Positions 1 through 52,928 of a DNA stretch of 64,000 nt are shown in pieces. The number at the start of each line of letters is the position of its first letter. Position 1 is the stretch's first letter. The stretch is from an uncultured Pseudanabaenaceae cyanobacterium (GTDB lineage Bacteria; Cyanobacteriota; Cyanobacteriia; PCC-9006; JAAUQQ01). The stretch is from the NCBI GenBank assembly GCA_938002085.1, contig CALLAT010000009.1, forward strand, positions 6,760 to 70,759. Direction: 5' to 3'. Made by a program: the position numbers and the translations under genes. Below the pieces are notes generated by a model. It saw only the letters and a program-made list of their open reading frames with translations, searched no databases and had not been told where the DNA came from.

Positions 1-3000
1 GGCCAGGTCAAAGTCTTAGGGAATGACGTCCAGGTCACGAATTCAGTTGTTAATGCATCTGGCGCGGCTGGTGGCGAGATTCATGTGGGGGGAGATTACC
101 AGGGGCGTGGAGACATGCTTCGTGCCGTCTCCACTCGCCTAGATGCTGCCTCGGTGTTGCGGGCTGACGGCATCGCTTCAACCTCAGGCATTCGCCCCGA
201 TGGCGGAGAGGTCGTTGTTTGGTCCGATGGCACCGCTGAGTTTGCCGGAACGGCCACGGCACGCTCCTTAGCTCCCGGTGGAGATGGTGGCCTGGTGGAG
301 ACCTCTGGCAAGCAGCAGTTAAATATTGCCTCTACTTCTGATGTGATCACAACTGCTGTTGGTGGCGCAACGGGGCAGTGGCTGATTGACCCGGTAGATT
401 TGACTGTTGTGAATGGCGGTGGAGCTGGGACCATCGTAGGCGGGGTGAATGATCCTGGGTCTAGCACTATTGATGCTTCCACCATAGAGGTAGGGCTAAA
501 TGGCAATAATGTTGCGCTTCAGGCTGATAATTCCATCACCGTCAATGCTTCTATTAATGCCTCTGCCAATCCTAGCGGTGGCGATCTAGACCTAGATGCT
601 CCAACGCTCAACTTGAATGAGCGAGTGACATTATTCTCGGGCAGCGACCTCTCTGGTACTGCGACAACAGTGAATGTGGGGGCAAACGGCGGTGTTCAGA
701 ATGGTATTGATGCTGCTGCAACAGGTGGCACTGTTAACTTGGCTGCGGCTACCTACCGTGAAGGCCAAGAGATCAATATTGATAAAGCAGTGGTTTTGCG
801 TGGGCAAGGTATCGCCAGCACTATCTTGAGCGGTGATGCTGCCAATGATGATATTACTCTGAGCAATCTCGGTGATAATCATCGCGTTGTGAACAACACT
901 GCCGCTGGCACGGTGATTGATGGCGTCACCATTGCCAATGGTGTTTCCACTAGAGGGGCTGGAGTAGATAATACTGCCAATGGTGCTGGCCTAACGATTC
1001 AAAACAGCCAGTTCCTCGATAATCAGATTATTGTTGGCAGTGATGATGGAGGCGCGATCGCAAATCGAGGCTCGCTCACGGTTACCAATAGTCATTTTGA
1101 ACGCAATACAACTCTGAGTGATGGCGGTGCGATTGATGCGAATAGCGGCGCAGTTGTCATTAGCAATAGCACCTTTGAAAATAACAGTGCGGGTGATCAT
1201 GGTGGCGCGATAGATCTAGATCGTGGCACTTTAGATATCTCTGACAGTACCTTTTTGCAAAATACTGCTGCTGAGGATGCGGGAGCAATCAATACTGAAG
1301 GTCAGTTAACCGTCAGTACCTCAGAATTTAGAGAAAATATAGCCCAAATTGAAGGCGGAGCGATTCAGATACAGGGGGGGAATGCTGAATTTGTTGATTC
1401 AAACTTTATTGATAATAATGCTGTTCAATTTGGAGGCGCGATCTCCTCTCGAGGAGCTGCTACTAGCAACTTGACCCTTCGTAGTACTGCACCAGGGCTG
1501 AGTCTTTTCCAAGGTAATCGTGTGACCTCGAGCTCTTCCCTTGAGGGACGAGGTGGTGCAATCTTTATCGCTGGTGCTTCCGATACGACGGTCACAGATA
1601 TCGACTTCGTCATGAATGATGCGACGAATGATGGTGGAGCGATCGCTGCAATCAATGGCAGTAATACTGAAATTACGAATAGTAATTTTCGCCAGAATGT
1701 CTCTACAGGAGATGATGCTGGTGCTGTTTATATTGCAAATAGTTCAACGCTGACTCTCAATCGTGGAAATTTTGAACAGAATGCTGCTGTTGATCGCGGT
1801 GGTGCTCTTACTATTCTGAGGAATTCTCAAGCAACTATTGATGGGACAAGCTTCTCTGAAAATAGTGTGAATAATTTTGGTGGAGCACTTTCCGTTGGTG
1901 AAAATAGTGATGCTTCGCTAAACAATGTTTCTTTTGATCGAAATCGCTCTCTTGCTGGTAGTGGTGGTGCAATTGGTGTTGAATTAAATGGGGAATTGAT
2001 TTCTTTAGATTCTGATTTTACTAGCAATACTTCCGTCTCGCAGGGAGGAGCAATTAGAATTGAAAGCGATTCTGAAGTAACTCTAAATAATAATAGCTTT
2101 CAGAGCAACCAATTACTGGTCAATACAGAAGGAAATGGGGGTGCTATTTTTGTCAATAGTAGTAGTGTTAATGCCCTTTCTGTGATGGGTGGAGATTTCA
2201 CTAATAATTCGAGCCTTGATGATGGTGGGGCTGTCACGATCAATCAAGGTACAGCACAGTTCTCGGATGTCGTATTTGCTTCAAACCGTGCCATCAATGG
2301 CGATGGCGGGGCTGTGGATGTAAATGCTGGTGCTACAGCAATCTTTCAAAATGGAAGCTTCACGAACAACCGAGCCCAATCCTTTGGTGGAGGGATTGAT
2401 AGCAGAGGAATGCTCACCGTTAATGGAACTAACTTCACAGGCAATCAAGCCACCCTAGATGGGGGGGCGATTTTTGTAGGTGCTTCTAATCTAACGAACG
2501 TTCAAAATGCAGACTTTATCAATAATCGGGCCATTGACAATGGTGGGGCGATCGCGTCCCAGAGTGACGGCAGTAGTCAGCTCACAATTTTGGACAGCAC
2601 CTTTGACAACAATGATGCTCAACAGAATGGCGGCGGTCTTTACTTAGATGCTCCCGCTGGAGCCTTGCTCTCGCTTAACCAAAACTCGTTCGTGAACAAT
2701 AGTGGATTGTCAGGAGGCGGGTTATTTAAGACAAACTCTGCTGACTTAACTATTGCGAACACTACGTTTGAACGTAATACCGCGACTGACCATGGAGGGG
2801 GGCTAGCAGCTGAGGCCAGCAATGGCATGATCACCCTTACGGATAGCAGAATCCTTCAAAATATTGCTGGGATAGATGGTGGTGGGATTCGCTTAAATGC
2901 TAGCAATCTTTCAGCCAGCAATAGTTTGATTCTGACGAATCAAACTCAATTTGGTGGGGGCTTAGAGCTGAGTCTTGGTAGTACGGCCCAGGTGAACGGT

Positions 3001-6000
3001 AGTCTGTTTCAAGGCAATACTAGCTCGTCCAGTGGTGGGGCGATTCAGATCGATAATACTTCGAGTGCCACAATTACGAATAGTCAACTCCTGAATAATC
3101 AATCTGGGTCTTTCGGCGGTGCCATCTTTGCCAGGGGGAGTTTTAGTCTTGATAACGCTCTGGTTCAAGCGAATACAGCGGTTAACGGTGGCGCTGGGAT
3201 TTCTCTGGCAGGTTCCAGCAGCGGTACTGTCGCCATCCGCTCTACAACAATTAACGGCAATAACTCTTCGGGTGGTGGCGGTGGCTTGACTCATCTCGGG
3301 GGGCAAGCAGTGACGATTGAGGATAGTACCTTTAGCAGCAATAGTGCTGGTGGCAGCGGTGGTGCCATAGACGCTATCACTTCTAGTATTCAGCTTTCCA
3401 ACAGCACGATCTCTAGCAATGCAACCTCCGGCATGGGCGGGGGTATATCCCTGGCCCCTGCCGCTCAGGTTGACTTAAGCAATGTCACAGTTGCGAATAA
3501 TAATGCTGTTTTTAGAGGGGGTGGACTTGCGAATCGCTTCGGTGGCAGTTTGACCTTGCAAAATACGATCGTGGCGGGAAATACGGCTGCCGATGACCCC
3601 GATATTACAGGCCTGATCACGAGCTTGGGTAATAATATTGTGCAAAATCGTGCAACTAGCACGGGGTATGTGAGTGCTGATTTGCCCGATGGTACGGACC
3701 CTCTGCTGTTATCCCTGGCCAATAATGGTGGATTGACTGAGACTCATGCAGTCCGGGTCAATAGCTTGGCAGTGGATGGTGGTAATGCTGGTGCAACTGC
3801 GGCTGATCAGCGTGGCCTAGTGGCGGTCAATCAAAGAGATATCGGGGCGTATGAGCTAGATAACAATCTGACGGTCTTTACTAGCGGTTCGGGGCAAACT
3901 ACAACTGTCAATCAACCATTTGCGAACCCTATCGAGTTCACGATCATAGACTCTTTGGGTAGCCCGATTGCTGGACAAAATATTACCGTTATCAGCGGTG
4001 GGGCTGTAACTGATCCGAGTGCGAGTTTGGGAACTTTGCAGACTAATAGTAGTGGTGTTGCCTCAACAACAGCAATAGCAAACACAGTCGCTGGTGGCTA
4101 TATGCTGACTCTAGATGCTGGGGTTCCAAATAGAGTATATGGATTATCTCTCACCAATACTGCGGATGTACCCGATCAGATCGCAGTGCTCAATGGCAAT
4201 AACCAAAGCACTATCGTCAATACTGCCTTTGTCAATCCGCTTCAGGTGGTGGTGACGGACCAATTTGGTAATCAGATTCCAAATCAGCCTGTGAGTTTTA
4301 GCCTGCCAGGCAGTGGTGCGAGCGCTAATTCCACTAGTGGTCTTGACCTTAATGCTATTGCTTTAGTGACTGATAGTGCGGGGCAAGCCACTGTTGGTCT
4401 CACTGCGAATACAATCGCTGGAAGCTATGGAGTTGGCCTTACATCTGGAGGCCTAAGCAGCAATGCGACGCTAACCAATTTGCCTGATCTCCCGAATCAA
4501 CTTGTGGTGGATAGTGGCAATAATCAGAGCACCGTGGTCAATACGGCTTTTGCCAACCCGCTGCAAGTGACGGTGACGGATCAGTTCGGCAACGTGATAC
4601 CTGGGGTGACGGTTGATGTGAGCTTACCCGGAGTAGGAGCCAGTGCCAATGGAGGGGCTATCGCGTTAACCACAGATGCGGCGGGTCAAGCCGCCACTGC
4701 CTTAACGGCTAATACTACCGCTGGCAGCTATTCAGTGGGTCTAACCTCTGGCACTGCTGGCAATGCCATCAACTTAACCAACTTGCCCGATGTCCCGGAT
4801 CAACTGACGGTTGTGAATGGCAATAACCAGAGCACCGTGGTCAATACGGCTTTTGCCAACCCGCTGCAAGTGACGGTGACGGATCAGTTTGGTAACGCAG
4901 TATCTGGGGTGACAGTGGATGTGAGTCTGCCAGGCTCTGGAGCTAGTGCCAATGCCGGAGCGACCACCTTAACCACTGATGCGACTGGACAGGCGACGAC
5001 TGGACTCGTCGCAAATACCACGGCTGGAGCTTACAGCCTAGGCTTGTCGGCAGGGAGCTTGGCCAATAGCTTGCAGCTCGTAAACTTACCCGATGCCCCA
5101 GCTCGCCTGGATGTTTTAACTGGGGATAATCAGAGCCAAGTGGTGGATGCCGCTTTTACTGATCCGTTGCTGGTGCAAGTGGCGGACCAATTCGGCAATG
5201 TCATCCCTGGGGCCATTGTGAACTTGAGCCTGCCAGGCACTGGCGCCACTGCTCAGGCAGGAAGCGTTGCCCTAACAACGGATAGCTTGGGCCAGGCCAG
5301 CACCCAGTTCGTCGCGAATACTGTTGCCGGAGCCTATGCGGTGGGCTTAGCTTCAGGCAATCTGAACAACAGCATTAGCCTGAGTAATTTACCCGATAGT
5401 CCAGCACAGTTAGACTTGCTCGCAGGCAATGATCAAGTCGCTCAGATTAATACTGCTTTTGCTGATGAGTTGCGAATACAAGTTGTGGACCAGTTTGGCA
5501 ATGCCATTCCGGGAGCAACAGTCACCTTCACTGCTCCTGTGGCAGGAGTTCCTAGCGCTGCACTATCGGCAGAGGTGGTTACGGCTGATGGTGCGGGACA
5601 AAGTCAAACGCTGGCCACTGCCAATGGATTGGCTGGTTCCTATCAAGTTCAAGCCCAGGCTGGGGCTGCCACAGCTGTTTTTGAACTAGAGAACACAGTG
5701 GATACACCTTTGCCTGAGTTACCTACGGTGACTGAACGTCCGCTGGCATCGCTACCGTCGAGTCAGCCTGTGGAAAATTTCTCTAGCAGCTCGCTGACCG
5801 CCAGCACTCCTTTGAGTTTCGTGAATACGGCAGCTATTGAGGCGATCGATAGTAGCTTCTCCTCTGCTTATACAAACCACTGGGGAACGCCTGCTTCGAC
5901 TGGTGTAACAGTCGCGGAAACCCGTGAACTGCTTCAAAATGCCGCAGAGGTCCATGGTGTGAAATCGGCCGTAGTCTATGGCTTGTTCGTGCCCCAGGAG

Positions 6001-7134: not shown

Positions 7135-7327
7135 TAGGCTTCATAGAAAGCCTGGCCTGACAAGGGTGGTTGTGAGGATCGTAAAATCGCGCTATGGGAC
7201 TGTATGTGAATAGGGAAATTTGGCCATATTCACGGATTATTTCGTGGGAGGGAAGGGAAATACTGAGACTAGATAGAGTTAGCAAGGGATGATCTCTACT
7301 TAGCTCAGTTATTGGAACCCTCGCGCC

Positions 7328-10300
7328 ATGGTCTGTCCCCGCGGCGTTAATTGTCGCAGTCTGCTTTTGTTGCCGCTGCTGGGAGTTGTTGCCCTGGATG
7401 CTAGCGCTGTCGCAGCTCCCGGACCGGTGCCGGTCAGTTTGCCTTCCCTGGCAGTGGTTGAACCACGGCTGGATGGTCCTGCGTTTCTACTCGCTTCTGC
7501 TTCGCGTTCTTCTGCAGTGCCAGGGACCTCCTCCACTGAGTCGTTGGAAGCGCAGCTGTCTTCGCACACCGCGGCCCTAGGTCTCCAGCTCAATTCTTTC
7601 GACTCCCCCCATTACCTCGCCCAAGTTATTCCCAGCGTTTTAGGGACTCAGACTCATGTGTCTACCGATGTCGGTGGAAACCGCTTTGAGATTGATGGGG
7701 GAACTCAGGTTGGAGGTAATCTCTTCCATCGTTTTGAGCAGTTCGATCTGACGACTGGACAGGTTGCTCGCTTTTTATCTAATTCCACGATTGCATCCAT
7801 TTTTAGCCAGGTGACTGGGCCTGCTTCATCCATTGATGGATTGCTCCAGGTGAGTGGGAGTGGTGCAGATTTATTTCTGATTAACCCAGCAGGGATTTTG
7901 CTAGGGCCGAATGCAAAGCTGGACCTGAGCGGTTCGTTTACGGCGACAACGGCGAGTCGGCTGGGGTTTGGGGAGCAGTGGATTGATCTGTTGGGAGAGG
8001 GGATTGGTGCAGAGACTGAGATCGCCGCTCCCTTAACTGTTCTGGAATTTTCTGGGGATGGGGGAGCGATCGCCAATCAAGGCCGACTAGCAGTCGCTCC
8101 GGGAGAAAGCATTGGGCTGCTGGGTCATGCCGTTGTCAATACTGGCTCCTTAGAAGCACCGGGGGGACAGGTCACGCTGGCCGCCGCGAAGGCTGGGCAG
8201 CGCCTGAGCTTGGATGGAGGCCTGCTGAATCTTGATTTGAATGCTCCTACAGGGGAGTTATTACCCCTGCCATTTGCTTCTACTGCTCTCGGAGCTTCCC
8301 TTGCTGAGGCAACAAGCTTGCAGGTCAGTGCCGATGGCATGATTTCTTTGGAAGCTGGTACAGCGATCCTCTCAGGTGATATTGACGTTTCTGCCCTGGA
8401 CAAGGCTGGAGGTCAAGTCAAGCTACTGGGAGAGTCTGTTCGCTTAGTTAATTCTGTTGTTGATGCATCTGGTCACCAAGGCGGTGAAATCCTTGTTGGG
8501 GGAAACCAGCAAGGTCAGGGAACGTTGCTGCGCGCTCGCCAGACTCAAGTGGATTCTACTTCTGCCTTGCATGTGGATGCTTTGGGAGCTGGAGATGCTG
8601 GCCAAATTATTGTTTGGGCTGACGATGCTACGCAGTTTTCTGGGACGATAACGGCGACAGCCCAGACTGGCGAGGGGGGCTTCGTTGAGACTTCTGGTAA
8701 GCGATTTCTGGACGTTGCAGGGGCCAGGGTCGATGCCAGTTCCCTGGCAGGTGGTTCTGGTGATTGGCTTTTAGATCCCACGGATATTTTGATTCAGGTG
8801 GGCGGTGGAGGAAGCATTGCTGCGGAAAGCTTTGACCCGGCTACGACGGGCCCAGCCAGCGTTATCGCGCCCAGCACGATTGAAAACGCCTTGGATGGGG
8901 GCACCAATGTCACGATCACCACGGCTGGGGGCACAGGCGGGAATGGTGATATCACGCTGAATGATCCGATTAATCAAACGGCTGGGGGCAGTGCTTCATT
9001 CACGTTGACCGGGCGGCGCTTCGATCGCAATGGCGGTGCTCAAATTAATCTCACCAGTACAGGGGGATTGACCTTCAATCTCAACCAGGTCAATGGGGAA
9101 TCGAATCCATCAACCCAGTCGATTCAAACTGCGATCGACAGTATTGGGACTGTTAATGGACCTCGTCTGATTACCCTGGGGCCAGGTTCTTATGTGGGAC
9201 TGCCAGGTGCTGACCTCATCACGATTGATACTGACTTAACTCTGGATGGACTAGATCGCCTGCAAACCTTCATCAGCGGCAGTAACAATGCTCGTGTTGT
9301 TGCCATTGCCCCTGGAACAACAGCAACGCTACAACGGTTGAATATCCAAGATGGGCAAACGGCTGCTTCTGGAGCTGGCATTCTCAATCAGGGAAATCTC
9401 AGCCTGATTGATGTTCTCTTACAAAACAACATTGCAGGTTTGGATGGAGGAGCAATTGATAGCAGTGCAACGAACTCTAGTCTGACGACTGGGGCTGATA
9501 CAGTCATTGCGAACAATCAAGCGGGTCGTAATGGGGGTGGGTTGGTATTAGGCGGTAATAGCCAGATTGAGGATGGTGGCATTATTGGCAATGTGGCTGG
9601 TAATGATGGCGGTGGTGTACACAATACAGGTGTTTTGAGGCTGAGCCGTTTAGGTGTCTCGCAGAATGCTGCGGCCCAAGGGGGGGGAGTTGCCAACGTT
9701 GGTAGCACAGCCAGTACGACGATCCAGTCTTTTGCTGTGCGGGATAATGATGCGACTGGAAATGGCGGTGGTATCTTCAATGACTCTGGCACCCTAGCCA
9801 CGCTTAATGGTTCTTTTGACAACAACACCAGTGGTCGCAGCGGAGGGGGACTGTTCTCTTCTGGCCCCACCTCTATGCTGAATACTGGCTTTGATACGAA
9901 TCAAGCTGCCCAGGCGGGCGGAGGAGCCTTTCTTTTCGGTGCGACTGCTGATTTGCAGGCGCTCTCATTCCAAAACAATCAAGCTGCTGGTGATGGGGGA
10001 GGGCTACGTCTTTCTGACATCACGGCAACGTTGTCCAGTAGTGACTTTTTGAATAACCAGGCTGATTTTGGTGGTGGACTAGAAGCGAGTGGCTCTGGCT
10101 CGGTGACGCTCAATAACGTGACCTTCCTGGAAAATGTAGCCCTTCGCTTGGGCGGTGCATTACAAAATGATGATTCGGTTGTCTTGGTCGCGAATGAACC
10201 TATTTTTGATCGCAACCGAGCTGATCTTCATGGAGGGGCAGTCCATAACAATTCAAGCTTGACTATCAACGATGGATTGTTCATTGATAACAGTGCTGTC

Positions 10301-13300
10301 CTAGATGGTGGGGGCATTCGTAATTTCAGTGGGCAGTTAACCCTCAATCAAGGAACGTTTCGCAATAACACTGCATCTCGTTACGGTGGAGCGATTCATA
10401 ATGCTGATCGGTTAGCTGCGGATGGTGTGACCTTTGAAACGGGGCAGGCGGTGGCGGGGGGAGCTATCTTTAGCCAGGCAGGGCAGAATGTTGTGACCAA
10501 TAGCCTGTTCGATCGCAATGTGGTGAGCCAAGGTGTCACAACAGGAGATGGTGGAGGTATTTATAGCTTCCAAAGTGACTTGTTTGTGGGTGACTCGACC
10601 TTTCGCAATAATCAGGCTGAAGACTTTGGTGGAGCAATTGTTAGTTCTGAAGGTGATCTGTCAGTTGTTGGAGCAATATTTCAGAATAATAGTGCAAGGA
10701 TTGGAGGAGGGCTGCATCAGAATGTTGGTGAGTTAGCGATCACCGATTCCCAGTTCCTCAATAACCAATCTCAGCAGCAGGGCGGGGGGCTAAATTTATT
10801 TGGGGTCACGAATAGCCAAATCCAACAAACGCTTATCCAAGCCAATCAAGTCGCAGCTGGGGGGGGCGGCGGCATAACCCTGGGGGGCGAAACAGATCTC
10901 ACCTTGGAGAGGGTTTCACTATTTCGAAACTTGTCAGCAAGGGGCGCGGGCTTGGACGCTTCTAGCTCGTATAGCTATAGTGGCACGCTGAACATTCTCA
11001 ATAGCGCGATCGCCAATAATCAATCCACCGGTAATGGAGGGGGGATTGATGTTAATCCCCTGGCTTTGGGAGGCGACGTCGAAATTGCTAACTCAACGAT
11101 TAGTGGAAATACCAGTGAGAATGACGGGGGGGGGATCGCTATTGGCGCTAATGCAACTTTTGATATCACCAACTCGACACTCGCTCTTAATCAGGTGAAC
11201 AATCGCGGTGGTGGAATTGCGGCTTTTGGTACTGCTGATTTGACCCATGTGACTGCTACGGATAATCAAGCGACTGGCCAAGGTGGGGGACTCTTTGCTG
11301 GTGGAGCAAGCGGCCAGATTCGTTTGACACATACTATCGCTGCAACAAATCAGGCACCTGTGGGCACTGATGTTTCTGGCAACTTTGATGACCAAGGCAA
11401 TAACTTAATTGGAAATCTGGATGGAACCTCTGGATTTACCAACAGCACTCTCCTAGGCAGTAGCGCCAGCCCGATTGACCCATTGCTGGCACCTTTGGAT
11501 AACTATGGGGGGCTGAATGCTACGGCTGCATTGCTGCCTGGTAGTGTTGCGATTGACGCAGGTAGCTCTGCCATTGCTGCAGATCAGCGTGGGGTGGCGC
11601 GGGTTAATGCTGTGGATATTGGTGCCTTTGAGTCCCAGGGATTTGTCACCGCTAGTCCGGTTGGGACACCTCAAAGTACAGAGGTGAATACGGCTTTTCC
11701 CCAGCCATTGGCGATGGGAATCTCCAGCTCCTTTGGTGAACCCGTTGATGGTGGACAAGTTGAGTTTGCAGCACCAGCCTCCAGTGCGAGCATCGCCTCA
11801 AATCAGAACCCAATACCCGTCACAATCACGGGCGGTGTGGCTCAGCTCTCCGTGAATGCGAATGGAATTGTCGGAGAATATAATGTAGAAGCAACTGCTG
11901 TGGGCGTAAGCCCAGTTGTTTTTGAGTTGACGAATTTACCTGCTCCCGACCCTGAACCACCATTGCCGACGCCGGACCCTCCTGCAGCACCACCGACACC
12001 GACTGTTGAACCGCCGCCAGTGATCTCCCCGCCAGAGCCGCCACCTGTTGTTGTACCAACATTTCCCTCGCTCACTCCGGAGGAACCATCACCCGTAGTC
12101 GAACCACTGCCTGTCGTCGAACCACCGCCCGTGATCGAATCGCCCGTGGAAAGGCCTTCGGCCGAACCAGTTGTCTTTGAACCGCCTGCCTTGGCGGAAC
12201 CCACTTTGTTGCCGTCTCGTCTCCTAGAATCTCCCAGTCAGCCCTTGTCGGGAGAGTCACCCCTCAGTTTGTCCAGTAGTGAGTCTGTGGCCAAGATTGA
12301 TGCTGACTTCTCTGCTCAATACACCAGCTATTGGCATGCGGCTTCTACAGAAGACTCACCTGTGGGCCAATCTGGCAGTGTTCTAGGAGGAGAGCGCTCT
12401 GGGAATGCCTTGGCCAATACTCGCGAATTGCTAGATCGAGCAGAGGCTGCCCACGGGGTGAAGTCTGCGGTGGTTTATGCCCTGTTTGTGCCCCAGGACA
12501 AAGCCAATGACGAGCGCTTTGGTCAGACCCAAGTGGCTAGTATGGCCCTCCGCCGCCGTCAACAAACCGATGCGGTTCGGGATGATGATTTACTGATGCT
12601 GGTATTAGTGCCCAGCGCAGGGGAGCCGGTGCAGCGCTTGATGGATGTGACGCGTCAAGAAGTGATGCAGCAGGTCCGGCTATTTCGTATGGCGGTGGCA
12701 GATCCGGAAGATCCATGGAGCTTCCGTCCCCTGGCTCAACAGATTCAAAGTTGGCTTTTTGCGCCTATTGAACCTGACCTAGAGCGTTTGGAACTTGATA
12801 ACACCATGTATGCTCTGGCACCGGGGCTGCGGGCGATTCCTCTGGCGGCAATGATGGATGGGGATGAGTTTGTGATTGAACGCTATGGCATTTCTCTGAT
12901 TCCCAGCGTGGATTTGTTGGAGACGGACTTTGGCTCTTCGCCGCCGCCGCCCCAAACTCTGGTTGCTGGTGCGAATGAATTTGAACAGTTAGCAGATCTG
13001 CCCGCAGTAGAGTTGGAATTGAATGCGATCGCTAATCAGCGCGAATCGGTAGATGTGCTGTTCAACCAGGAGTTTACCAAAGCAAACTTGATAGAAACCC
13101 AAAAACAAGGGCAGGCCAAAATGCTCCACTTAGCCACCCATGGTTCTTTCAATGCAGGTGACCTGGGGCGTTCTTATTTACAGTTTTGGGATGGTCAGCT
13201 AACCCTGGATGAAATTAGTCAAATGGGTTGGAACGATCTAGAGCTGTTGATCCTCAGCGCTTGCCAAACTGCCATTAACAGCCCTGAAGCAGAGCTGGGC

Positions 13301-13612
13301 TTTGCAGGCCTAGCGGCGGCGGCGGGTGTAGAAAGTACCATTGGTAGCTTGTGGACGGTCTCTGATATTGGAACGTTGGGGATGATGGCAGAGTTCTATG
13401 GACAACTGAACCAGGAACCACTGCGATTTGAGGCTTTACGCCAGACACAGCTTTCGATGATTCGTGGGGAGACGGCGATCGCCCATCAGCAGTTGCGCAC
13501 TGAGCAGGGGGAGATTGATTTGCCGCCAGAGTGGCAATTGCCTGAGACGGCAGATTTCTCCCATCCCTTCTATTGGTCTGGATTTACGCTGGTGGGTAAC
13601 CCCTGGTGGTAA
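7328..13612 (+). CDS. Giant TPS-domain (filamentous-haemagglutinin N-terminal) beta-helix exoprotein with C-terminal CHAT peptidase domain, 2094 aa
   Basis: Single uninterrupted ORF with a hydrophobic leader (SLLLLPLLGVVALDASAVAA). It contains a TPS domain, GEGGFVETSGK..WLLDPTDILI, GGAI/PMP repeats, a DQRG..DIGAFE cap, one Ig-like domain, a Pro-rich spacer and a CHAT domain. It is paralogous to 1..7134. Confidence 0.93.
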   Translation: MVCPRGVNCRSLLLLPLLGVVALDASAVAAPGPVPVSLPSLAVVEPRLDGPAFLLASASRSSAVPGTSSTESLEAQLSSHTAALGLQLNSFDSPHYLAQVIPSVLGTQTHVSTDVGGNRFEIDGGTQVGGNLFHRFEQFDLTTGQVARFLSNSTIASIFSQVTGPASSIDGLLQVSGSGADLFLINPAGILLGPNAKLDLSGSFTATTASRLGFGEQWIDLLGEGIGAETEIAAPLTVLEFSGDGGAIANQGRLAVAPGESIGLLGHAVVNTGSLEAPGGQVTLAAAKAGQRLSLDGGLLNLDLNAPTGELLPLPFASTALGASLAEATSLQVSADGMISLEAGTAILSGDIDVSALDKAGGQVKLLGESVRLVNSVVDASGHQGGEILVGGNQQGQGTLLRARQTQVDSTSALHVDALGAGDAGQIIVWADDATQFSGTITATAQTGEGGFVETSGKRFLDVAGARVDASSLAGGSGDWLLDPTDILIQVGGGGSIAAESFDPATTGPASVIAPSTIENALDGGTNVTITTAGGTGGNGDITLNDPINQTAGGSASFTLTGRRFDRNGGAQINLTSTGGLTFNLNQVNGESNPSTQSIQTAIDSIGTVNGPRLITLGPGSYVGLPGADLITIDTDLTLDGLDRLQTFISGSNNARVVAIAPGTTATLQRLNIQDGQTAASGAGILNQGNLSLIDVLLQNNIAGLDGGAIDSSATNSSLTTGADTVIANNQAGRNGGGLVLGGNSQIEDGGIIGNVAGNDGGGVHNTGVLRLSRLGVSQNAAAQGGGVANVGSTASTTIQSFAVRDNDATGNGGGIFNDSGTLATLNGSFDNNTSGRSGGGLFSSGPTSMLNTGFDTNQAAQAGGGAFLFGATADLQALSFQNNQAAGDGGGLRLSDITATLSSSDFLNNQADFGGGLEASGSGSVTLNNVTFLENVALRLGGALQNDDSVVLVANEPIFDRNRADLHGGAVHNNSSLTINDGLFIDNSAVLDGGGIRNFSGQLTLNQGTFRNNTASRYGGAIHNADRLAADGVTFETGQAVAGGAIFSQAGQNVVTNSLFDRNVVSQGVTTGDGGGIYSFQSDLFVGDSTFRNNQAEDFGGAIVSSEGDLSVVGAIFQNNSARIGGGLHQNVGELAITDSQFLNNQSQQQGGGLNLFGVTNSQIQQTLIQANQVAAGGGGGITLGGETDLTLERVSLFRNLSARGAGLDASSSYSYSGTLNILNSAIANNQSTGNGGGIDVNPLALGGDVEIANSTISGNTSENDGGGIAIGANATFDITNSTLALNQVNNRGGGIAAFGTADLTHVTATDNQATGQGGGLFAGGASGQIRLTHTIAATNQAPVGTDVSGNFDDQGNNLIGNLDGTSGFTNSTLLGSSASPIDPLLAPLDNYGGLNATAALLPGSVAIDAGSSAIAADQRGVARVNAVDIGAFESQGFVTASPVGTPQSTEVNTAFPQPLAMGISSSFGEPVDGGQVEFAAPASSASIASNQNPIPVTITGGVAQLSVNANGIVGEYNVEATAVGVSPVVFELTNLPAPDPEPPLPTPDPPAAPPTPTVEPPPVISPPEPPPVVVPTFPSLTPEEPSPVVEPLPVVEPPPVIESPVERPSAEPVVFEPPALAEPTLLPSRLLESPSQPLSGESPLSLSSSESVAKIDADFSAQYTSYWHAASTEDSPVGQSGSVLGGERSGNALANTRELLDRAEAAHGVKSAVVYALFVPQDKANDERFGQTQVASMALRRRQQTDAVRDDDLLMLVLVPSAGEPVQRLMDVTRQEVMQQVRLFRMAVADPEDPWSFRPLAQQIQSWLFAPIEPDLERLELDNTMYALAPGLRAIPLAAMMDGDEFVIERYGISLIPSVDLLETDFGSSPPPPQTLVAGANEFEQLADLPAVELELNAIANQRESVDVLFNQEFTKANLIETQKQGQAKMLHLATHGSFNAGDLGRSYLQFWDGQLTLDEISQMGWNDLELLILSACQTAINSPEAELGFAGLAAAAGVESTIGSLWTVSDIGTLGMMAEFYGQLNQEPLRFEALRQTQLSMIRGETAIAHQQLRTEQGEIDLPPEWQLPETADFSHPFYWSGFTLVGNPWW
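7619..7972 (+). other. TPS / haemagglutination-activity secretion domain of giant 2
   Basis: [74 protein letters not shown] matches the hallmark N-x-F-H-x-F and (L/I)INPxGI motifs of TpsA N-termini. Confidence 0.85.
9370..11632 (+). other. PMP-type (GGAI/GGGL) beta-helix repeat region of giant 2 with DQRG..DIGAFE cap
   Basis: The repeat logic is the same as in giant 1 but the sequence is divergent. Boundaries are approximate. Confidence 0.75.
12450..13609 (+). other. CHAT peptidase module of giant 2 (core about 12730..13609)
   Basis: The His codon is 13139..13141 (LHLATHGSF) and the Cys codon is 13262..13264 (LILSACQTA). By eye it is about 70% identical to the giant-1 module (not computed), and the last 20 aa are identical. 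Confidence 0.85.
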
Positions 13613-14086
13613 GGGCTGGCCTGTTTGGCTCTGGAAGTTGATCTCTCAGGAGAGTGGTTCTTCGCATTTGTACGCAGGGAGACTCGGGTTGGACACTTTG
13701 GCTTAGGGAGATTTAAGGGACTGGAATCGTCGCGATCGCAGTTTTACTGAAGCCCTTATCCATGGAATAAATAGAGAGGATAGTAGCTTTATCAAAGCCC
13801 TAAAAATACGTTTAAAAGCCTTGGGTTTGCTTTGCCTAAGACCTGAAGCGGTTGGTTATTCTGGGTCTATATTTAAGTCAGGCCTCACCGTCTAAAGCCT
13901 CTGTGAGGGCTGACTGTATCGCGTTTGAGCTGCTCCTACCCAGCGGTTTTACAGTTGGGATTGGAGCTAAGAAGCGTGATCAACGCAAACTTGCCAAGTT
14001 CATCCTCAGCATCCATTGCTGCCTGCCAGTTCAGCTGACGTTACGCCGTCCAGGGACTCTCCGGTTCTCATTAGGTTTTGTAGATT

Positions 14087-14935
14087 ATGGCTCTTCCAAT
14101 GCCAACCCAATCCAGTTCCGCTTCCATGACATTCCCTAATGAGGGGGAGTCCGCAACAAGCTTGCGACGCAACCGGCGAGGAGGAGCCTGGGCTCAGTTT
14201 GCGCTCGCCACCCTGGCGATGTTGGGTGGCCTCGTTCTTCCAGGAGCGACCCAAGTCGCCCAGGCTCAGTCCAACTCCGCTAACGCTTCTAGCGCTAGTA
14301 CATCTAACGCTAAGCCCAGCCGAGTGCGCTGGACTCCTAAGCCTGAACGGGGCAATGCTCGGGGTACCTTGTCCGGCGGCCGTCGTGGAGGCGATACAGT
14401 GGCCTGCGGTCCGACTGCCGATGATACTGCTCTCAATTTGCTGGTGACCGATGCGCGGGAAAGTTTGATTACCACCCAGGCCCAGCCCACCCTGGCTTGG
14501 CAGGTGAAGACTCAACAGCCCGTGGAAATGGAGCTTATTGTCAGCGATGTGAGCCAGGCAGCCCCTCTGTTTACTCAACGCTTGGTGGCCAACGAGAGTG
14601 AAGTGATCCGCGTGGAGTTGCCGCCTGCTGCTGCTCTCAGCCCCGGTGCTCAGTACCGCTGGACCGTGGTTGCCCAATGTCCCACAGGCCAAAAATCGGA
14701 GATTTATGCTCGAAGCTTTATCCGACAGGTCTCTGGGGAATCCTTAGGTCAGCAGCCTTCTGTTACCTCCTCCCTGGGGCAGCTTCCTCTGGATCAAGCT
14801 GTTGCCTATGCCAATAGCGGTGTTTGGTATGACGCCGTGGCACAGTTATTGACCTTGCCCGAGCAGGTGGTGCAAGGTCAACCCGCCGATCTTTTGGCTG
14901 AACTCTTGGAGCAAGCCCAGACTTCGACCCTTTAG
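14087..14935 (+). CDS. DUF928 domain-containing secreted protein
   Basis: Signal-peptide-like segment FALATLAMLGGLVLPGATQVAQAQ, followed by the Gly/Arg motif RGNARGTLSGGRRGGDTVAC and a beta-rich body (PTLAWQV..VELPPAA..LSPGAQYRWTV). This pattern is typical of the cyanobacterial DUF928 family. Confidence 0.8.
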   Translation: MALPMPTQSSSASMTFPNEGESATSLRRNRRGGAWAQFALATLAMLGGLVLPGATQVAQAQSNSANASSASTSNAKPSRVRWTPKPERGNARGTLSGGRRGGDTVACGPTADDTALNLLVTDARESLITTQAQPTLAWQVKTQQPVEMELIVSDVSQAAPLFTQRLVANESEVIRVELPPAAALSPGAQYRWTVVAQCPTGQKSEIYARSFIRQVSGESLGQQPSVTSSLGQLPLDQAVAYANSGVWYDAVAQLLTLPEQVVQGQPADLLAELLEQAQTSTL

Positions 14936-14980
14936 TGATTGGAGGAGGGAAGCCAGGGCTATTGCACTTCGTAAGCACTT

Positions 14981-16804
14981 ATGAACCTGCTGCACCTATT
15001 CTCACGATTTCGAAATTTGGGTGGAGCGGGCACAAGCCGCTTTCAGCGGAAGCGCCCTGTGGATTGGTCCCAATGGCGATCGCTCCTGGTTGCGGGCAGC
15101 AGTGCTACCACTTGCTTGTTGCTGTTGCGATTTCTGGGCTTGCTTCAGCCTGTGGAGCTAAAAAGCCTGGACTGGATGCAGCAGTTACGCCTCACTGAAC
15201 CTGTGGACTCCCGTATCGTTTTGGTGGGGGTGACTGATGCTGATTTAAATTGGCTCGGTACGCCAGTGCTTACCGATGCCACTCTGGCTGCGGTGATTGA
15301 GGCAATTCAAGAGCAATCGCCCCGAGTCATTGGCTTAGACTTTTATCGGAATTTGCCCGTGGAGCCGGGCCGAGCTCAGTTGGATGCGGTGTTAGAGACC
15401 TCCGCCAATTTGGTGGGGATTGAAAAGGTGGTGTTGGAAGAAGGTCAGTCGCGTCAGGATGGAGCCCTGCCAGGCCACCCGCTGCTGGTGGCTGGAGATC
15501 AAGTTGGGGCCAGTGATGTGATTGTGGATCGCGATGGTCGCATTCGTCGGGGAGCGATTTTTCCCGCAACGACTGGCCCTCGCGTGCTAGAAGGTCTGGG
15601 GGCTCGGGTGGCTCTAGATTATTTGGCAGATGAAGAAATATACCCCGAACTGGAATCGGAGTTTCTAAGGATCGCGGGGACCACTATCGCCCCGCTGGAG
15701 CGCTATAGTGGCGGCTATATGCGGTTGGACAGCGGCGGTTATCAAGTGCTGTTCAACCCTCGGCGCACTGCCAAGCCGGTGGAGCTGATCTCGATTCGAG
15801 ATTTGTTGACGGGAAATGTTGCCAGCGATCGCATGACAGATCGCATTGTCATGGTGGGTAGCACTGCGCTGAGTGCTGCCGATTTGTTTTACACCCCCCA
15901 TAGCAATGGCTACTTTCGTGATTCTGGCATTACCTATGGGGTTGAGTTGCATGGGGAACTTGCGAGCCAGCTGATTAGCCAGGTGCTAGATGGTCGTCCT
16001 GCACTACGGAGTTTATCCGAAGGCTGGGAGATGCTCATCATCGCGATGTCTGCCTTTGGCGGGGCAGCATTTCAGCTGTGGCTCGGTGACAAGCAGCGTA
16101 ATTTTGGGGTAGCCGCTGCCTTTGTTGGCATGCCCCTGGTCAGCTATGGGGCCTTTGTGGGGATGGGCCTGTGGCTACCGATTGTGCCTTGTTTAGGGAC
16201 CTTGGGCTTGGCTTCGTTGCTGATGACTTTAAATCGTTCCAATCAGTTCAAGACCCTAGCAGAGCGAGATGCGCTCACACGCCTAGCCAACCGTCGCCGG
16301 TTTGATGAAGCCTTGCAGCGATCGTGGATGGAGGGGTTGCGATCGTCCCATGCACTCTCGCTGATTCTCTGCGATGTGGATTATTTCAAGCTGTATAACG
16401 ATACCTACGGCCATTCTTTGGGAGATGATTGTCTGATGCGAGTGGCCCAGGTCATTCAACAGTCCACTGTGCTGGGCTCTGGGTTGGCGGCCCGCTATGG
16501 TGGCGAAGAATTTGTGGTGCTGATGCCGAAGGCAACGCCAGAGGAAGCGCTGGCCCAGGCCAATCAAATCCGTGAGCGCTTGATGGCTTTACAACTTCCC
16601 CATGAGGCTTCTGAAATTAGTGACTCGGTGACGCTGAGTTTGGGGGTGGCGACTTTGATGCCAACGATGAATTTACCCATGGGGGCCTTGGTTGAGCAGG
16701 CGGATGTGGCGCTGTATGCCGCGAAACAAGGCGGACGGAATCAAGCCCAGCTCTATCGCCCTGAGATGGAGCAGGATGATGAGATCTTGACCCAGGCTGC
16801 CTAG
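14981..16804 (+). CDS. CHASE2 sensor-domain diguanylate cyclase (CHASE2-TM-GGDEF)
   Basis: An N-terminal TM segment is followed by LQPVELKSLDWMQQLR and a ~300-aa extracytoplasmic region. Three TM helices follow, then a GGDEF domain (DALTRLANRRRF.., RYGGEEFVVLM). No RxxD I-site lies upstream of GGEEF. Confidence 0.9.
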   Translation: MNLLHLFSRFRNLGGAGTSRFQRKRPVDWSQWRSLLVAGSSATTCLLLLRFLGLLQPVELKSLDWMQQLRLTEPVDSRIVLVGVTDADLNWLGTPVLTDATLAAVIEAIQEQSPRVIGLDFYRNLPVEPGRAQLDAVLETSANLVGIEKVVLEEGQSRQDGALPGHPLLVAGDQVGASDVIVDRDGRIRRGAIFPATTGPRVLEGLGARVALDYLADEEIYPELESEFLRIAGTTIAPLERYSGGYMRLDSGGYQVLFNPRRTAKPVELISIRDLLTGNVASDRMTDRIVMVGSTALSAADLFYTPHSNGYFRDSGITYGVELHGELASQLISQVLDGRPALRSLSEGWEMLIIAMSAFGGAAFQLWLGDKQRNFGVAAAFVGMPLVSYGAFVGMGLWLPIVPCLGTLGLASLLMTLNRSNQFKTLAERDALTRLANRRRFDEALQRSWMEGLRSSHALSLILCDVDYFKLYNDTYGHSLGDDCLMRVAQVIQQSTVLGSGLAARYGGEEFVVLMPKATPEEALAQANQIRERLMALQLPHEASEISDSVTLSLGVATLMPTMNLPMGALVEQADVALYAAKQGGRNQAQLYRPEMEQDDEILTQAA

Positions 16805-25136: not shown

Positions 25137-25364
25137 GGCGATGTTGCGGTATTGCAGTAATTAATTATGTCTGGGAGTCGCCGGGTCGCACTTTTGTAAA
25201 GTGAAAACCTCAAGCGGCACTGCTTCCGTCATTATTGTGGCAGCCCTGCGCTAGGTCTAGGGCTGGGTTGCCAGCAAAGCAATGTGGCCACCAGGTTACA
25301 GGCTGATTTAAGTCTCAGTGATTGCTGATCAGCCCTGGCATTGGAAGTTAACAGGGGAGCCATC

Positions 25365-26852: not shown

Positions 26853-26958
26853 GGGAAGATGTAAGTTAAGTATGAGCATGGTCGAGCCGACCGCCTATGT
26901 CGTTTGAGAGTTGGGCAATCTATGGGTAGGTTTTCCCCACCCTGAGTGTGCAGACTCA

Positions 26959-48539: not shown

Positions 48540-52928
<4,389 letters not shown>

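Follow-up and report, generated by a model that had tools for sequence, protein, structure and literature searches.

The window analysed here, a stretch of 64,000 nucleotides, carries two tandem giant exoproteins ending in caspase-like CHAT modules, followed on the same strand by genes for a DUF928 protein and a CHASE2-GGDEF diguanylate cyclase. Fusion of TPS and CHAT proved to be the rule, not a one-off. The parts cluster in many bacteria, indicating an unstudied system that probably relays cell-surface events into the cell. We tentatively regard the locus as the cyanobacterial fused-gene version of a widespread, uncharacterised outside-in envelope-signalling system, which would comprise five parts: the TpsA exoprotein, the CHAT protease, DUF928, the CHASE2 receptor and the TpsB pore. 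This is a possible and preferred assignment rather than a confident one. A literature search found no paper describing the TPS-CHAT/DUF928/CHASE2 system, in agreement with the first-pass annotation, which knew of no experimentally characterised TpsA-CHAT fusion. What that annotation had seen in the sequence was confirmed, and its interpretation was supported in part.

Organisation of the locus

The four open reading frames of the locus all lie on the + strand. Their coordinates agreed with the proposed arrangement of two tandem same-strand giants, and the order and spacing of the downstream genes, a signal-peptide DUF928 protein and a CHASE2-GGEEF cyclase 45 nt beyond it, were reproduced. Profile searches upheld all domains proposed in the first-pass annotation (TPS, PMP beta-helix, Ig, CHAT, DUF928, CHASE2 and GGDEF), with significant matches for TPS, CHAT, DUF928, CHASE2 and GGDEF, and the motifs quoted for giant 2 and the cyclase all fell at or inside the ranges assigned to them. 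Giant 2 and DUF928 are separated by a gap of 474 nt, which suggests separate transcription. The features are as follows.

1..7134, + strand: giant 1 (ORF1), TpsA-type exoprotein, partial (5'-truncated), with PMP beta-helix, choice-of-anchor-Q-like cap, six Big_1 repeats and CHAT (Pfam)
3805-3855: giant 1 choice-of-anchor-Q-like cap, DQRG..DIGAYE
5722..7131, + strand: giant 1 CHAT module, pseudo-caspase half and catalytic half (Pfam CHAT E 2e-61, alignment)
7328..13612, + strand: giant 2 (ORF2), complete, 2094 aa, with signal peptide, TPS, beta-helix, Ig-like domain, Pro-rich spacer and CHAT
7643..8218, + strand: giant 2 TPS secretion domain, aa 106-297, NPxG-type motifs (Pfam TPS E 2e-35; TIGR01901 adhes_NPXG E 4e-20)
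8675..8788, + strand: giant 2 conserved post-TPS extension, GGFVETSGK ... WLLDPTDI
9245..11476 (boundaries approximate), + strand: giant 2 PMP-type parallel beta-helix passenger (Pfam Chlam_PMP E 2.5e-13)
11477..11638, + strand: giant 2 choice-of-anchor Q domain, beta-helix cap (NCBIfam NF041518 E 6e-19, aa 1384-1437)
11663..11934, + strand: giant 2 Ig-like domain, homologous to the giant 1 Big_1 repeats (BLASTP)
11935..12215, + strand: giant 2 Pro-rich spacer, 35% Pro
12200..13609, + strand: giant 2 CHAT module (Pfam CHAT aa 1801-2091, E 1e-60; AF2 model, Foldseek, alignment)
14087..14935, + strand: DUF928 protein (Pfam DUF928 E 3e-20)
14321..14389, + strand: DUF928 signature motif RVRWTPKPERGNARGTLSGGRRG (near-invariant in alignment; pLDDT <50)
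14981..16804, + strand: CHASE2-GGDEF diguanylate cyclase (Pfam CHASE2 E 3e-49 and GGDEF E 3e-47 in the same protein)
31327..36027, + strand: third TPS exoprotein, 1566 aa, TPS domain only (Pfam TPS E 3e-34)
36027..38510, + strand: signal-peptide TPR-CHAT protein, starting at the stop codon of the third TPS gene (Pfam CHAT E 2e-70 and TPR families)

As the database protein P0219, identical to giant 1 over all 2377 window residues, is 2721 aa long, the window lacks 344 aa of giant 1; the TPS domain of P0219 is located at aa 79-321. Giant 1 had been described as sharing the domain order of giant 2 with six Ig repeats, and Pfam detected six Big_1 stretches (E 2e-28) along with Chlam_PMP and CHAT.

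Within the TPS region of giant 2, the motif GNLFHRFEQFDL was located at 7715-7750 and a second quoted motif of 10 residues at 7877-7906. The post-TPS region, with GGFVETSGK at 8675-8701 and WLLDPTDI at 8765-8788, showed 45% identity to the third TPS protein (aa 98-496). The two motifs had been claimed for all three TPS proteins; a pattern search found GG[FL]VE[TV]SGK in three, whereas W[LI][LI]DP matched only ORF1 and ORF2. In support of the beta-helix passenger, giant 2 has 24 GG[AG][ILVFM] motifs from aa 245 to aa 1319, and the presumed cap DQRG..DIGAFE, found at 11582-11632 as quoted, was identified as the NCBIfam choice-of-anchor Q domain. The Ig-like domain had no Pfam match of its own, and it was supported by a BLASTP alignment of ORF2 aa 1446-1596 with ORF1 aa 1809-1946, in the Big_1 region (32% identity). 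The Pro-rich spacer was also real, as judged from its composition.

The signal peptide of the DUF928 protein ends with ...VAQA at approximately aa 60. Beyond it, the protein was predicted to contain a conserved motif in a disordered stretch, a beta-sandwich of the Ig/MG-like type and a helical tail carrying GVWYDA; the matches to the predicted fold were generic beta-sandwiches. The signature pattern occurred in 39 DUF928 ORFs and in 3 other ORFs across 1.43 M residues. With its predicted disorder, this motif is a candidate docking or cleavage peptide, and that DUF928 might be a CHAT substrate is a guess. The cyclase consists of TM1 (approximately aa 35-53), a periplasmic CHASE2 domain, a hydrophobic block at aa 351-417 (approximately three TM segments) and, in the cytoplasm, a GGDEF domain whose GGEEF lies at 16499-16513; inspection of the cyclase revealed no RxxD I-site. 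The third TPS gene and the adjacent TPR-CHAT gene, whose product has an N-terminal hydrophobic leader, represent the unfused form of the TPS-CHAT pairing.

The CHAT module and its genomic neighbourhood

The His and Cys codons proposed for CHAT were intact in both giants (His 6661-6663 and Cys 6784-6786 in giant 1; His 13139-13141 and Cys 13262-13264 in giant 2), and in an alignment of 30 sequences they fell in the HLATHG and LSAC columns, which are invariant. The AF2 model of the giant 2 module (pLDDT 85.9, pTM 0.87) predicted a caspase-like fold with this conserved dyad. The structure comparison bore out the CHAT assignment: the best Foldseek match was Csx29 (8eex_B, E 7e-13, TM-score 0.51 normalised to the query), and further PDB matches were separase, SAVED-CHAT and DdvA (8rw5, E 9e-7). 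As the profile search found no PDB sequence relative of CHAT, the details of the active site rest on the predicted model, and the module is presumed to be an active protease. The predicted nucleophile is the sole Cys in mature giant 2 and among the 2377 window residues of giant 1, as one would expect of an enzyme active outside the cytoplasm. The module shows 62-65% identity between the two giants, against approximately 30% for the passenger, and 35-50% across orders. The CHAT of giant 2 matched the TPR-CHATs of unfused operons (L144/L165 type) over approximately 400 aa (E 3e-42), better than it matched the TPR-CHAT of the window itself.

A census seeded by CHAT covered 80 cyanobacterial loci with 98 CHAT domains and their neighbours within 10 kb. 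A same-strand upstream TPS was present for 75 of the 98 domains, and TPS and CHAT formed one uninterrupted ORF in 66; the upstream sequence was missing for most of the others. An exhaustive search returned 2,545 clusters, which consist mostly of proteins 1,000-3,083 aa long whose very C-terminal end is the module. Of its best representatives, 128 reached at least 900 aa, and 107 of these combined an N-terminal TPS with the module at the very end of the chain.

The reverse census, seeded by DUF928 alone, comprised 28 loci flanked by at least 3 kb on either side. CHASE2 was found in 27 (96%), CHAT in 22 (79%), and TPS or TpsB in 18. The neighbourhood was retained by very distant DUF928 relatives (25-30% identity, metagenome contigs), and the synteny by relatives of 47-77% identity (L004-L007, L085/L086, L087-L101). 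The proposed functional link to DUF928 and CHASE2 was thus sustained in both census directions, and more strongly than the first-pass annotation could have foreseen. Approximately 83% of the TPS-CHAT loci had neither DUF928 nor CHASE2 within 10 kb, so most members of the family work without an adjacent sensor. On metagenome contigs of non-cyanobacterial appearance, the parts of the system are separate genes. In L144 and L165, both metagenome contigs, TpsA, TPR-CHAT, the CHASE2-cyclase and DUF928 are encoded on a single strand by genes that overlap or follow one another closely, and the TpsB gene is convergent to them. Stand-alone CHAT proteins in DUF928 loci had a signal-peptide-like N-terminus in 24 of 25 cases, compared with 18 of 56 control ORFs.

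The outputs of the CHASE2 partners varied (GGDEF, adenylate/guanylate cyclase, histidine kinase, TIR or CHAT) while CHASE2 and DUF928 stayed constant, an interchangeability typical of a sensor module; accordingly, c-di-GMP is not a constant feature of the system. Nostoc PCC 7120 carries a CHAT-like domain fused N-terminal to CHASE2, probably on the cytoplasmic side, and the relations between CHAT and CHASE2 are therefore not uniform.

Possible envelope signalling and competing readings

In the signalling reading, each giant would be exported by Sec, its TPS domain would engage a TpsB pore encoded elsewhere in the genome, and the variable beta-helix/Ig passenger would be threaded out to the cell surface. 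The conserved C-terminal CHAT, the last part to arrive, would remain periplasmic, as the prodomain of FhaB and CdiA's C-terminal half do, and could there meet DUF928 and the periplasmic CHASE2 domain. A change in the surface fibre (contact, pulling or damage) would activate the otherwise resting His-Cys protease, which would cut a periplasmic target, most likely the disordered PxxRG...GGxRG peptide of DUF928 or the linker of the giant itself. The cut would alter what CHASE2 senses, turning on the cytoplasmic GGEEF domain and raising c-di-GMP. We placed CHAT in the periplasm with DUF928 and CHASE2, not at the distal tip, because stand-alone CHATs carry their own export signal; the signal peptide of DUF928 and the position of CHASE2 between TM segments were also counted for this compartment. 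Periplasmic retention of the fused CHAT, its protease activity, its substrate, and the direction and sign of signalling are what we infer.

No TpsB gene is present anywhere within the 64-kb window, and of the 80 CHAT-seeded loci only 8 had TpsB within 10 kb, as did L003 in addition. This scarcity was counted against signalling, as were the TPS-CHAT loci that have no sensor nearby, the 474-nt gap, the generic fold matches of DUF928, the non-uniform CHAT-CHASE2 relations, the dependence of the active-site details on a model, and the minimal TPS-CHAT fusions of approximately 800 aa (P0008, P0026), which have no fibre and could be secreted whole.

The same passenger-less fusions resemble TPS-targeted cargo, as would fit a secreted or surface protease fibre, the reading of the first-pass annotation. 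Here the whole giant including CHAT would pass through TpsB, the DUF928-CHASE2 cyclase would only regulate or accompany it, and an extracellular CHAT might attack proteins of the matrix, of neighbouring cells or of prey, or else its own fibre. The giants have a TPS domain and a signal peptide, and TpsA proteins are by definition exported via TpsB; adhesin-like variable passengers (PMP, Big_1, Invasin_D3) suit surface fibres, and the single-Cys composition suits an extracellular enzyme as well as a periplasmic one. However, the CHAT of the unfused clusters has a Sec-type leader and TPR but no TPS, leaving no evident route past the periplasm, where its genomic partners DUF928 and CHASE2 also lie. 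Moreover, the solved CHATs (Csx29, separase, SAVED-CHAT and DdvA) are tightly regulated signalling proteases, not bulk degradative ones (PMC11506125). We consider such a fibre unlikely, though worth keeping in view.

Self-processing is a rather improbable explanation, in which CHAT would cut its own polypeptide in cis, or in trans between paralogues, to release or mature the passenger, as SphB1, DegP and CtpA do on FhaB or the clan-CD CPD on MARTX, with DUF928-CHASE2 a loosely coupled sensor. Since most TPS-CHAT loci lack DUF928 and CHASE2, CHAT must, on this argument, have a role needing TpsA alone. A flexible Pro-rich or Ser-rich linker precedes the module, tandem paralogues recur across ten loci (L014, L022, L023, L025, L026, L030, L066, L068, L076, L086), and for DdvA, autoprocessing in trans by the periplasmic CHAT has been proposed (PMC11506125). 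These linkers, however, showed no conserved cleavage motif, and self-processing leaves unexplained both the frequency of CHAT (79%) and CHASE2 (96%) in DUF928 loci and the tight single operon of unfused genes. The GxGGLP motif of short TpsAs was absent from both giants.

The first-pass annotation had likened its protease at the last-secreted end of the fibre to CdiA effector delivery, and this was not supported. A CDI-like polymorphic toxin, with CHAT as an effector delivered into neighbouring cells and DUF928 as the immunity protein, would account for the TpsA-like architecture, the distinct C-terminal enzymatic domain and the small ORF after it. Toxin delivery was largely refuted, as the C-terminus is the most conserved part of the giants rather than the most variable. 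The giants contain no VENN or related pre-toxin motif, no immunity-like gene was seen, and PADLOC gave no system-level match; DUF928 is exported and accompanies CHASE2 in 27 of the 28 loci, and most TPS-CHAT loci lack it. This reading is very improbable. Chance adjacency of unrelated neighbours in a signalling-rich window, to which four GGDEF proteins and the 474-nt gap might point, is scarcely credible and was refuted by the censuses, since synteny persists in relatives and the five families co-localise in very distant loci.

Comparison with known systems

The signalling reading has a close parallel in NsrA of Sinorhizobium meliloti, an outer-membrane beta-barrel protein, with the CHASE2 adenylate cyclases CyaK, CyaD1 and CyaD2 (PMC7529298, PMC13001267). 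There, an inner-membrane cyclase with periplasmic CHASE2 needs an outer-membrane component to perceive an external proteinaceous signal; the system is not reported to include a TpsA fibre, a CHAT protease or DUF928, and the output is cAMP, in contrast to c-di-GMP at this locus. Related clusters of Campylobacterota also include a TPR protein (bioRxiv 10.1101/2022.03.11.484041).

FhaB/FhaC of Bordetella and CdiA/CdiB share the type Vb design of an N-terminal TPS, a beta-helical passenger and dependence on an Omp85-type TpsB, and a large C-terminal part of FhaB and CdiA is periplasmic during the secretion intermediate (PMC4542190, PMC8263021). The C-terminal part here is instead a conserved protease fold of clan CD where those proteins have a prodomain or a polymorphic toxin, with no adjacent TpsB, VENN motif or immunity gene.

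DdvA of Myxococcus xanthus, an anti-sigma factor, has a periplasmic TPR-CHAT in a transmembrane signalling protein, with its dyad in a resting state, and was proposed to act via signal-induced proteolysis (PMC11506125). It thus places CHAT outside the cytoplasm in a signal-transducing envelope protein, and it is among the structural matches (8rw5); unlike the giants, DdvA is an inner-membrane-anchored regulator of an ECF sigma factor and is neither TPS-borne nor partnered with CHASE2 or DUF928.

Csx29 (TPR-CHAT, Craspase) and separase likewise combine a pseudo-caspase half with an active caspase-like half bearing a His-Cys dyad, but both are cytoplasmic, with 9-15% sequence identity. RNA-guided Cas7-11 switches Csx29 on, and separase is under securin control.

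The analogy to LapA/LapG/LapD drawn in the first-pass annotation survived as a loose likeness, namely a giant surface adhesin, a periplasmic cysteine protease and a link to c-di-GMP. LapA is secreted by a type I system, LapG belongs to the BTLCP (C93) proteases, and LapD is a c-di-GMP receptor with a degenerate GGDEF and EAL that signals inside-out. In contrast, adhesin and protease here form a single fused protein, CHASE2 serves as the sensor, and the GGEEF is that of an intact cyclase, from which we take the flow to run outside-in.

Gene organization and domain composition of the locus

The first 16.8 kb of the window comprised four genes on one strand, listed here with their Pfam matches.

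Genes of the locus (window coordinates)
1..7134, plus strand: giant 1, 5'-truncated; PMP repeats, six Big_1 stretches and CHAT (E 2e-61)
7328..13612, plus strand: giant 2, complete, 2094 aa; TPS at aa 106-297 (E 2e-35), Chlam_PMP, and CHAT at aa 1801-2091 (E 1e-60)
14087..14935, plus strand: DUF928 gene, 282 aa; DUF928 (PF06051, E 3e-20)
14981..16804, plus strand: CHASE2-GGDEF gene, 607 aa; CHASE2 (E 3e-49) and GGDEF (E 3e-47)

Every domain call of the first-pass annotation was upheld by these profile searches, and the motifs and the His and Cys codons it had quoted were all located where it had placed them. Giant 2 starts with the leader MVCPRGVNCRSLLLLPLLGVVALDASA, and its N-terminus matched the TIGR01901 NPxG hemagglutinin domain of NCBIfam (E 4e-20). 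Both giants display the N-terminal arrangement of a TpsA exoprotein, in which a signal peptide precedes a TPS domain containing NPxG-type motifs. For giant 1 the TPS domain was seen in the full-length database protein P0219 (2721 aa), which was 100% identical to giant 1 across all 2377 window residues and carried the TPS domain at aa 79-321 (E 1e-34), indicating that the window merely removes 344 residues of giant 1. The Chlam_PMP repeats, capped by the DQRG..DIGAFE stretch corresponding to the choice-of-anchor Q domain of NCBIfam, predict a beta-helical passenger.

The CHASE2-GGDEF gene begins 45 nt past the DUF928 stop codon. In its product, an N-terminal transmembrane segment (hydrophobic aa 35-53) and a hydrophobic block at aa 351-417 flank the CHASE2 domain, the GGEEF motif at aa 507 is intact, and no RxxD site was seen by inspection; judged from its sequence, it is a predicted CHASE2-GGDEF diguanylate cyclase. 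A LysR regulator gene and a ferrochelatase-like gene are located 3' of the cyclase gene, and the order of giants, DUF928, CHASE2-GGDEF, LysR and ferrochelatase was preserved in a close relative (L085/L086).

Four GGDEF-domain proteins were found in the 64 kb, making an unusually dense c-di-GMP neighbourhood. The window also encodes two other large putative surface proteins, one with a DUF1565/NosD-type beta-helix (25341..26852) and a 1462-aa Calx-beta protein with an Endotoxin_C-like N-terminus (48540..52928, minus strand).

GGDEF-domain proteins of the window
14981..16804, plus strand: CHASE2-GGDEF, the first of the four
26911..29334: GAF-GGDEF-EAL, the second
38456..39580, minus strand: REC-GGDEF response regulator, the third
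55233..57506: REC-PAS-GGDEF-EAL, the fourth

The TPS-CHAT fusion family and its CHAT module

The distribution of the fusion was investigated by a genome scan using one genome per species, queried with an alignment of the CHAT module. The scan gave at least 564 relatives. All of the best 80 loci were cyanobacterial; the closest named relatives were a Pseudanabaenaceae MAG (64%), Leptothoe sp. PORK10 (47%) and Leptolyngbya sp. Heron Island J (46%). Six-frame ORFs were then scanned with HMMs for TPS, CHAT, DUF928, CHASE2, GGDEF and TpsB built from the window and locus sequences. A same-strand upstream TPS domain was detected for 75 of the 98 CHAT domains in the best 80 loci, 66 of these 75 lying with CHAT within one uninterrupted ORF, where TPS start and CHAT start were separated by 1.3 to 9.2 kb. 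The other 23 CHAT domains were mostly without upstream sequence. In L001 (7227..10001) and in L003 of Chamaesiphon minutus (8520..10001), the interval from the TPS gene to the CHAT gene contained no long ORF, which may reflect decay or frameshifting of a former fusion, or a fault in the assembly.

When 1.84 billion representative sequences were searched exhaustively with phmmer, 2,545 clusters at 50% identity fell within the CHAT module family (E <= 1e-30). Most of the best 150 matches were 1,000-3,083 aa long and carried the module at their extreme C-terminus, and giant cyanobacterial surface proteins made up the majority of the best matches. Among the best 150, an N-terminal TPS domain was present in 107 of the 128 proteins of at least 900 aa, the rest appearing N-truncated. 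The passengers differed among fusions (PMP helix, Big_1, Invasin_D3, DUF11 and others), down to minimal fusions of ~800 aa consisting only of signal peptide, TPS, linker and module, and tandem TPS-CHAT duplicates were found repeatedly. We had considered short CHAT-only proteins as the dominant form, as the indexed homologue search gave none longer than ~1,050 aa, but this was rejected when the genome scan and the exhaustive search showed the giants. Indexed homologue searches with giant proteins give only fragments or short relatives, and the architecture they imply can mislead. The TPS and CHAT architecture is present in public annotation as 'CHAT domain-containing protein'.

The CHAT module is a conserved unit of the last ~470 residues, longer than the Pfam match. 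Its AlphaFold2 model, built with 30 homologues, reached a pLDDT of 85.9 and a pTM of 0.87. The Foldseek ranking of this model against the PDB comprised Csx29/TPR-CHAT of type III-E CRISPR (E 7e-13), separase, SAVED-CHAT, DdvA (the periplasmic TPR-CHAT of an anti-sigma factor), gingipain and caspases. The predicted structure fits the clan CD caspase-hemoglobinase fold, in agreement with the caspase-like fold proposed earlier. Queried with a profile of the CHAT alignment, the PDB yielded no match at E <= 0.01, indicating that the CHAT domains of the giants represent a distant CHAT lineage.

His314 and Cys355 (module numbering) were invariant in the 30-sequence alignment, and with the profile matches this dyad marks the giants as putative CHAT peptidases. 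Each mature giant has a single cysteine, the predicted CHAT nucleophile. In giant 1 it is Cys2262, counted along the 2377 residues encoded in the window; in giant 2 it is Cys1979, the two remaining cysteines of that protein being located in the leader. The two giants were 62-65% identical in the CHAT module and only about 30% in the passenger.

Conserved association with DUF928, CHASE2 and TpsB

The DUF928-CHASE2 pair was found within 10 kb in 13 of the 80 CHAT-seeded loci, the two always occurring together in variable orientation. A metagenome scan seeded by DUF928 alone was carried out with the same HMMs, counting loci flanked by 3 kb or more on each side. CHASE2 was present in 27 of the 28 loci, CHAT in 22 and TPS or TpsB in 18, so the clustering pointed out by the first-pass annotation was borne out by the census. 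The DUF928-seeded set included relatives of only 25-30% identity on evidently non-cyanobacterial contigs. Pfam analysis of two distant loci identified a five-gene cluster of TpsA (about 800 aa, TPS only), TPR-CHAT (about 820 aa), CHASE2-adenylate/guanylate cyclase, DUF928 and a convergent TpsB (POTRA_2/ShlB), the first four genes being separated by few-base gaps or overlapping. The window also harbors an unfused form.

Unfused TPS and CHAT genes of the window
31327..36027: third TPS gene, a 1566-aa TPS-only exoprotein
36027..38510: TPR-CHAT gene, encoding a signal-peptide protein and starting at the stop codon of the third TPS gene

The convergent REC-GGDEF gene (38456..39580, minus strand) overlaps the 3' end of this TPR-CHAT gene. 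The module of giant 2 matched the cluster-type TPR-CHATs with E 3e-42 over about 400 residues, better than it matched the window's own TPR-CHAT. The occurrence of TpsA and CHAT as separate proteins in some lineages and as one polypeptide in cyanobacteria is the pattern classically shown by cooperating proteins. These results demonstrate that the TPS-CHAT giants are genuinely linked to DUF928 and CHASE2, and that this link holds widely. Within the window, giant 2 and DUF928 are separated by a 474-nt gap, which suggests separate transcription.

The short TpsAs of the unfused clusters shared a conserved Cys...SF[VI][VI]xGxGG[LA]PxxP motif near the end, followed by a variable tail (L144:12204-14567 on the minus strand, L165:2589-5081, L121, L127, L131, L104, L139 and L116). 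An Arg-Gly cleavage site shared by DUF928 and the TpsA C-termini was considered and rejected, as the x position of C...SF[VI][VI]xGxGG[LA]P was not conserved as Arg and the motif was absent from the giants.

The CHASE2 proteins of the clusters carried various outputs, namely GGDEF, a nucleotide cyclase, a histidine kinase, TIR or an N-terminal CHAT-like domain. Such interchangeable outputs fit a sensor module with a constant input. In L044:4092-5924, L013:2578-4977 (minus strand) and L167:10840-13182, the CHASE2 protein beside DUF928 had an N-terminal TIR or CHAT-like domain and no cyclase. These N-terminal domains are presumably cytoplasmic, and the CHASE2 sensor module can drive death-type effectors as well. 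On plasmid alpha of Nostoc sp. PCC 7120 (L167), a TPS protein, DUF1822, sigma-70, CHAT-CHASE2 and DUF928 were located together. Two unrelated cyanobacteria had DUF1822 in the vicinity of TPS and CHAT/CHASE2 genes (L003, 14617..15501; L167, 7895..10155, with the sigma-70-type gene in PCC 7120), and DUF1822 may be a further associated component.

The DUF928 gene product showed the family profile, a signal peptide, which was present throughout the family, and the PxxRG...GGxRG signature. The protein consists of three parts: a disordered stretch with the near-invariant motif, an Ig/macroglobulin-like sandwich and a helical tail with GxWYDA. The motif P-x-x-R-G-x(7-9)-G-G-x-R-G was found in 39 DUF928 ORFs versus 3 others in 1.43 M residues. 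All matches of the fold search were generic sandwiches of the Ig/MG/FN3 type, headed by GbpA, C5 MG4 and the MtxA C-terminal domain (E about 6e-4); a role of DUF928 as an alpha-2-macroglobulin-like inhibitor was dropped on this ground. DUF928 genes were often in tandem and directly convergent with TpsB (L103, L104, L105, L110, L112, L114, L123 and L130), with three copies in L123, while the database protein P0144 had the PxxxG...GGRRG motif duplicated inside one protein.

No TpsB ORF was found anywhere in the 64-kb window, and the adjacent cognate TpsB expected for a TpsA is thus missing there. TpsB adjoined in nine related loci, including L003, L016, L019, L028, L046, L072, L081 and L083, and in the unfused clusters; apart from L003, where it is divergent, no more than 8 of the 80 CHAT-seeded loci had a TpsB nearby. 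The CHASE2 gene adjoined TpsB in many DUF928 loci, but not in the window.

A possible envelope-signalling role and its relation to known systems

Among the stand-alone CHAT proteins of DUF928 loci with complete N-termini, 24 of 25 had a basic stretch followed by a signal-peptide-type hydrophobic segment, compared with 18 of 56 ORFs in a crude control. As these leaders are accompanied by the signal peptide of DUF928 and by the position of CHASE2 between membrane segments, CHAT is probably extracytoplasmic. In type Vb secretion the N-terminus exits first, and FhaB and CdiA pass through a secretion intermediate in which a large C-terminal part is still in the periplasm; the simplest site at which fused CHAT would lie beside its conserved partners is therefore the periplasmic face of the TpsB pore, and by this analogy we infer such a placement.

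We tentatively favor outside-in signalling, a reading that is possible rather than probable. The variable fibre would be displayed via TpsB while the CHAT end stays periplasmic in a resting state, the state in which the CHAT proteases solved so far were found (PMC11506125). An event at the surface would activate CHAT, which may then cut the exposed peptide of DUF928 or the giant's own linker, and the CHASE2 domain would sense the change and activate the GGEEF domain. The use of a periplasmic TPR-CHAT in transmembrane signalling has a precedent in DdvA (PMC11506125). Counting against the outside-in reading, the window has no TpsB, few CHAT-seeded loci have one close by, about five in six TPS-CHAT loci had neither DUF928 nor CHASE2 adjacent, and the gap of 474 nt in front of DUF928 suggests that it is transcribed separately.

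A protease fibre that is secreted in full is unlikely. The CHAT end could instead be a self-processing module coupled only loosely to the sensor, which we also consider unlikely. The comparison with CdiA effector delivery drawn by the first-pass annotation was not supported. CDI systems (CdiA/CdiB/CdiI) have a hypervariable toxin after a VENN-type motif and an immunity gene, and the locus fails on both: the giants lack a VENN motif, their C-terminus is the most conserved part, and the downstream gene encodes an exported CHASE2 partner, making a CDI-like toxin highly improbable. PADLOC detected no known defence system, only domain-level likenesses (BovA, TPR and TIR). Chance adjacency of the giants, DUF928 and the CHASE2 cyclase deserves next to no credence beside the census counts.

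Returning to outside-in signalling, there is a fair chance that the locus represents a new envelope-signalling pathway. In its broadest form, which is rather doubtful, TpsA, CHAT, DUF928, the CHASE2 receptor and TpsB would constitute an unrecognised pathway from the outer to the inner membrane: the Omp85-threaded fibre would act as a mechanical or contact sensor, the protease at its periplasmic end would produce a proteolytic signal, and DUF928 and CHASE2 would pass it to interchangeable outputs, namely c-di-GMP, cAMP/cGMP, a phosphorelay, or TIR and CHAT death-type effectors.

CHASE2 is among the commonest bacterial extracytoplasmic sensor domains. To our knowledge its signals are unknown, as the Pfam description states, DUF928 is without an assigned function, and CHAT proteases have been understood only recently and solely in cytoplasmic defence systems (Craspase and SAVED-CHAT). 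The locus and the censuses join all three to two-partner secretion through gene fusion and conserved gene order, yielding a concrete, testable pathway and a large family. If true, the pathway would be the first defined ligand logic for CHASE2 and would give bacterial CHAT proteases an envelope-sensing role. Should the outside-in model hold, it would account for the coupling of surface contact, in filamentous cyanobacteria, to aggregation, motility or biofilm formation under c-di-GMP control. Genetically manipulable hosts have versions of the system: Nostoc sp. PCC 7120 carries the TPS protein, CHAT-CHASE2 and DUF928 on plasmid alpha, and in Chamaesiphon minutus a TpsB adjoins TPS...CHAT.

Our literature searches found no description of the TPS-CHAT fusion or the five-gene cluster, consistent with the earlier statement that no such fusion had been characterised. 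DUF928 was mentioned in the literature searched only in PMC5587647, which notes a CHASE2-DUF928 neighbourhood in Nostoc punctiforme. The likeness to LapA/LapG/LapD drawn by the first-pass annotation does not extend to the defining features: Lap consists of a T1SS adhesin, the BTLCP LapG and the degenerate GGDEF-EAL protein LapD, whereas the locus has TPS-type secretion and CHAT, and the NCBIfam LapD model gave 52 bits where its cut-off is 1020. In function, the closest analogue is NsrA/CyaK signalling, which is marked by a CHASE2 cyclase in genetic coupling with a beta-barrel partner of the outer membrane, although TpsA, CHAT and DUF928 are not reported there. Compared with type Vb TpsA proteins, the giants show all the sequence features examined except an adjacent TpsB. 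The locus encodes type Vb exoproteins whose conserved putative protease end is without precedent, in association with a CHASE2 sensor.
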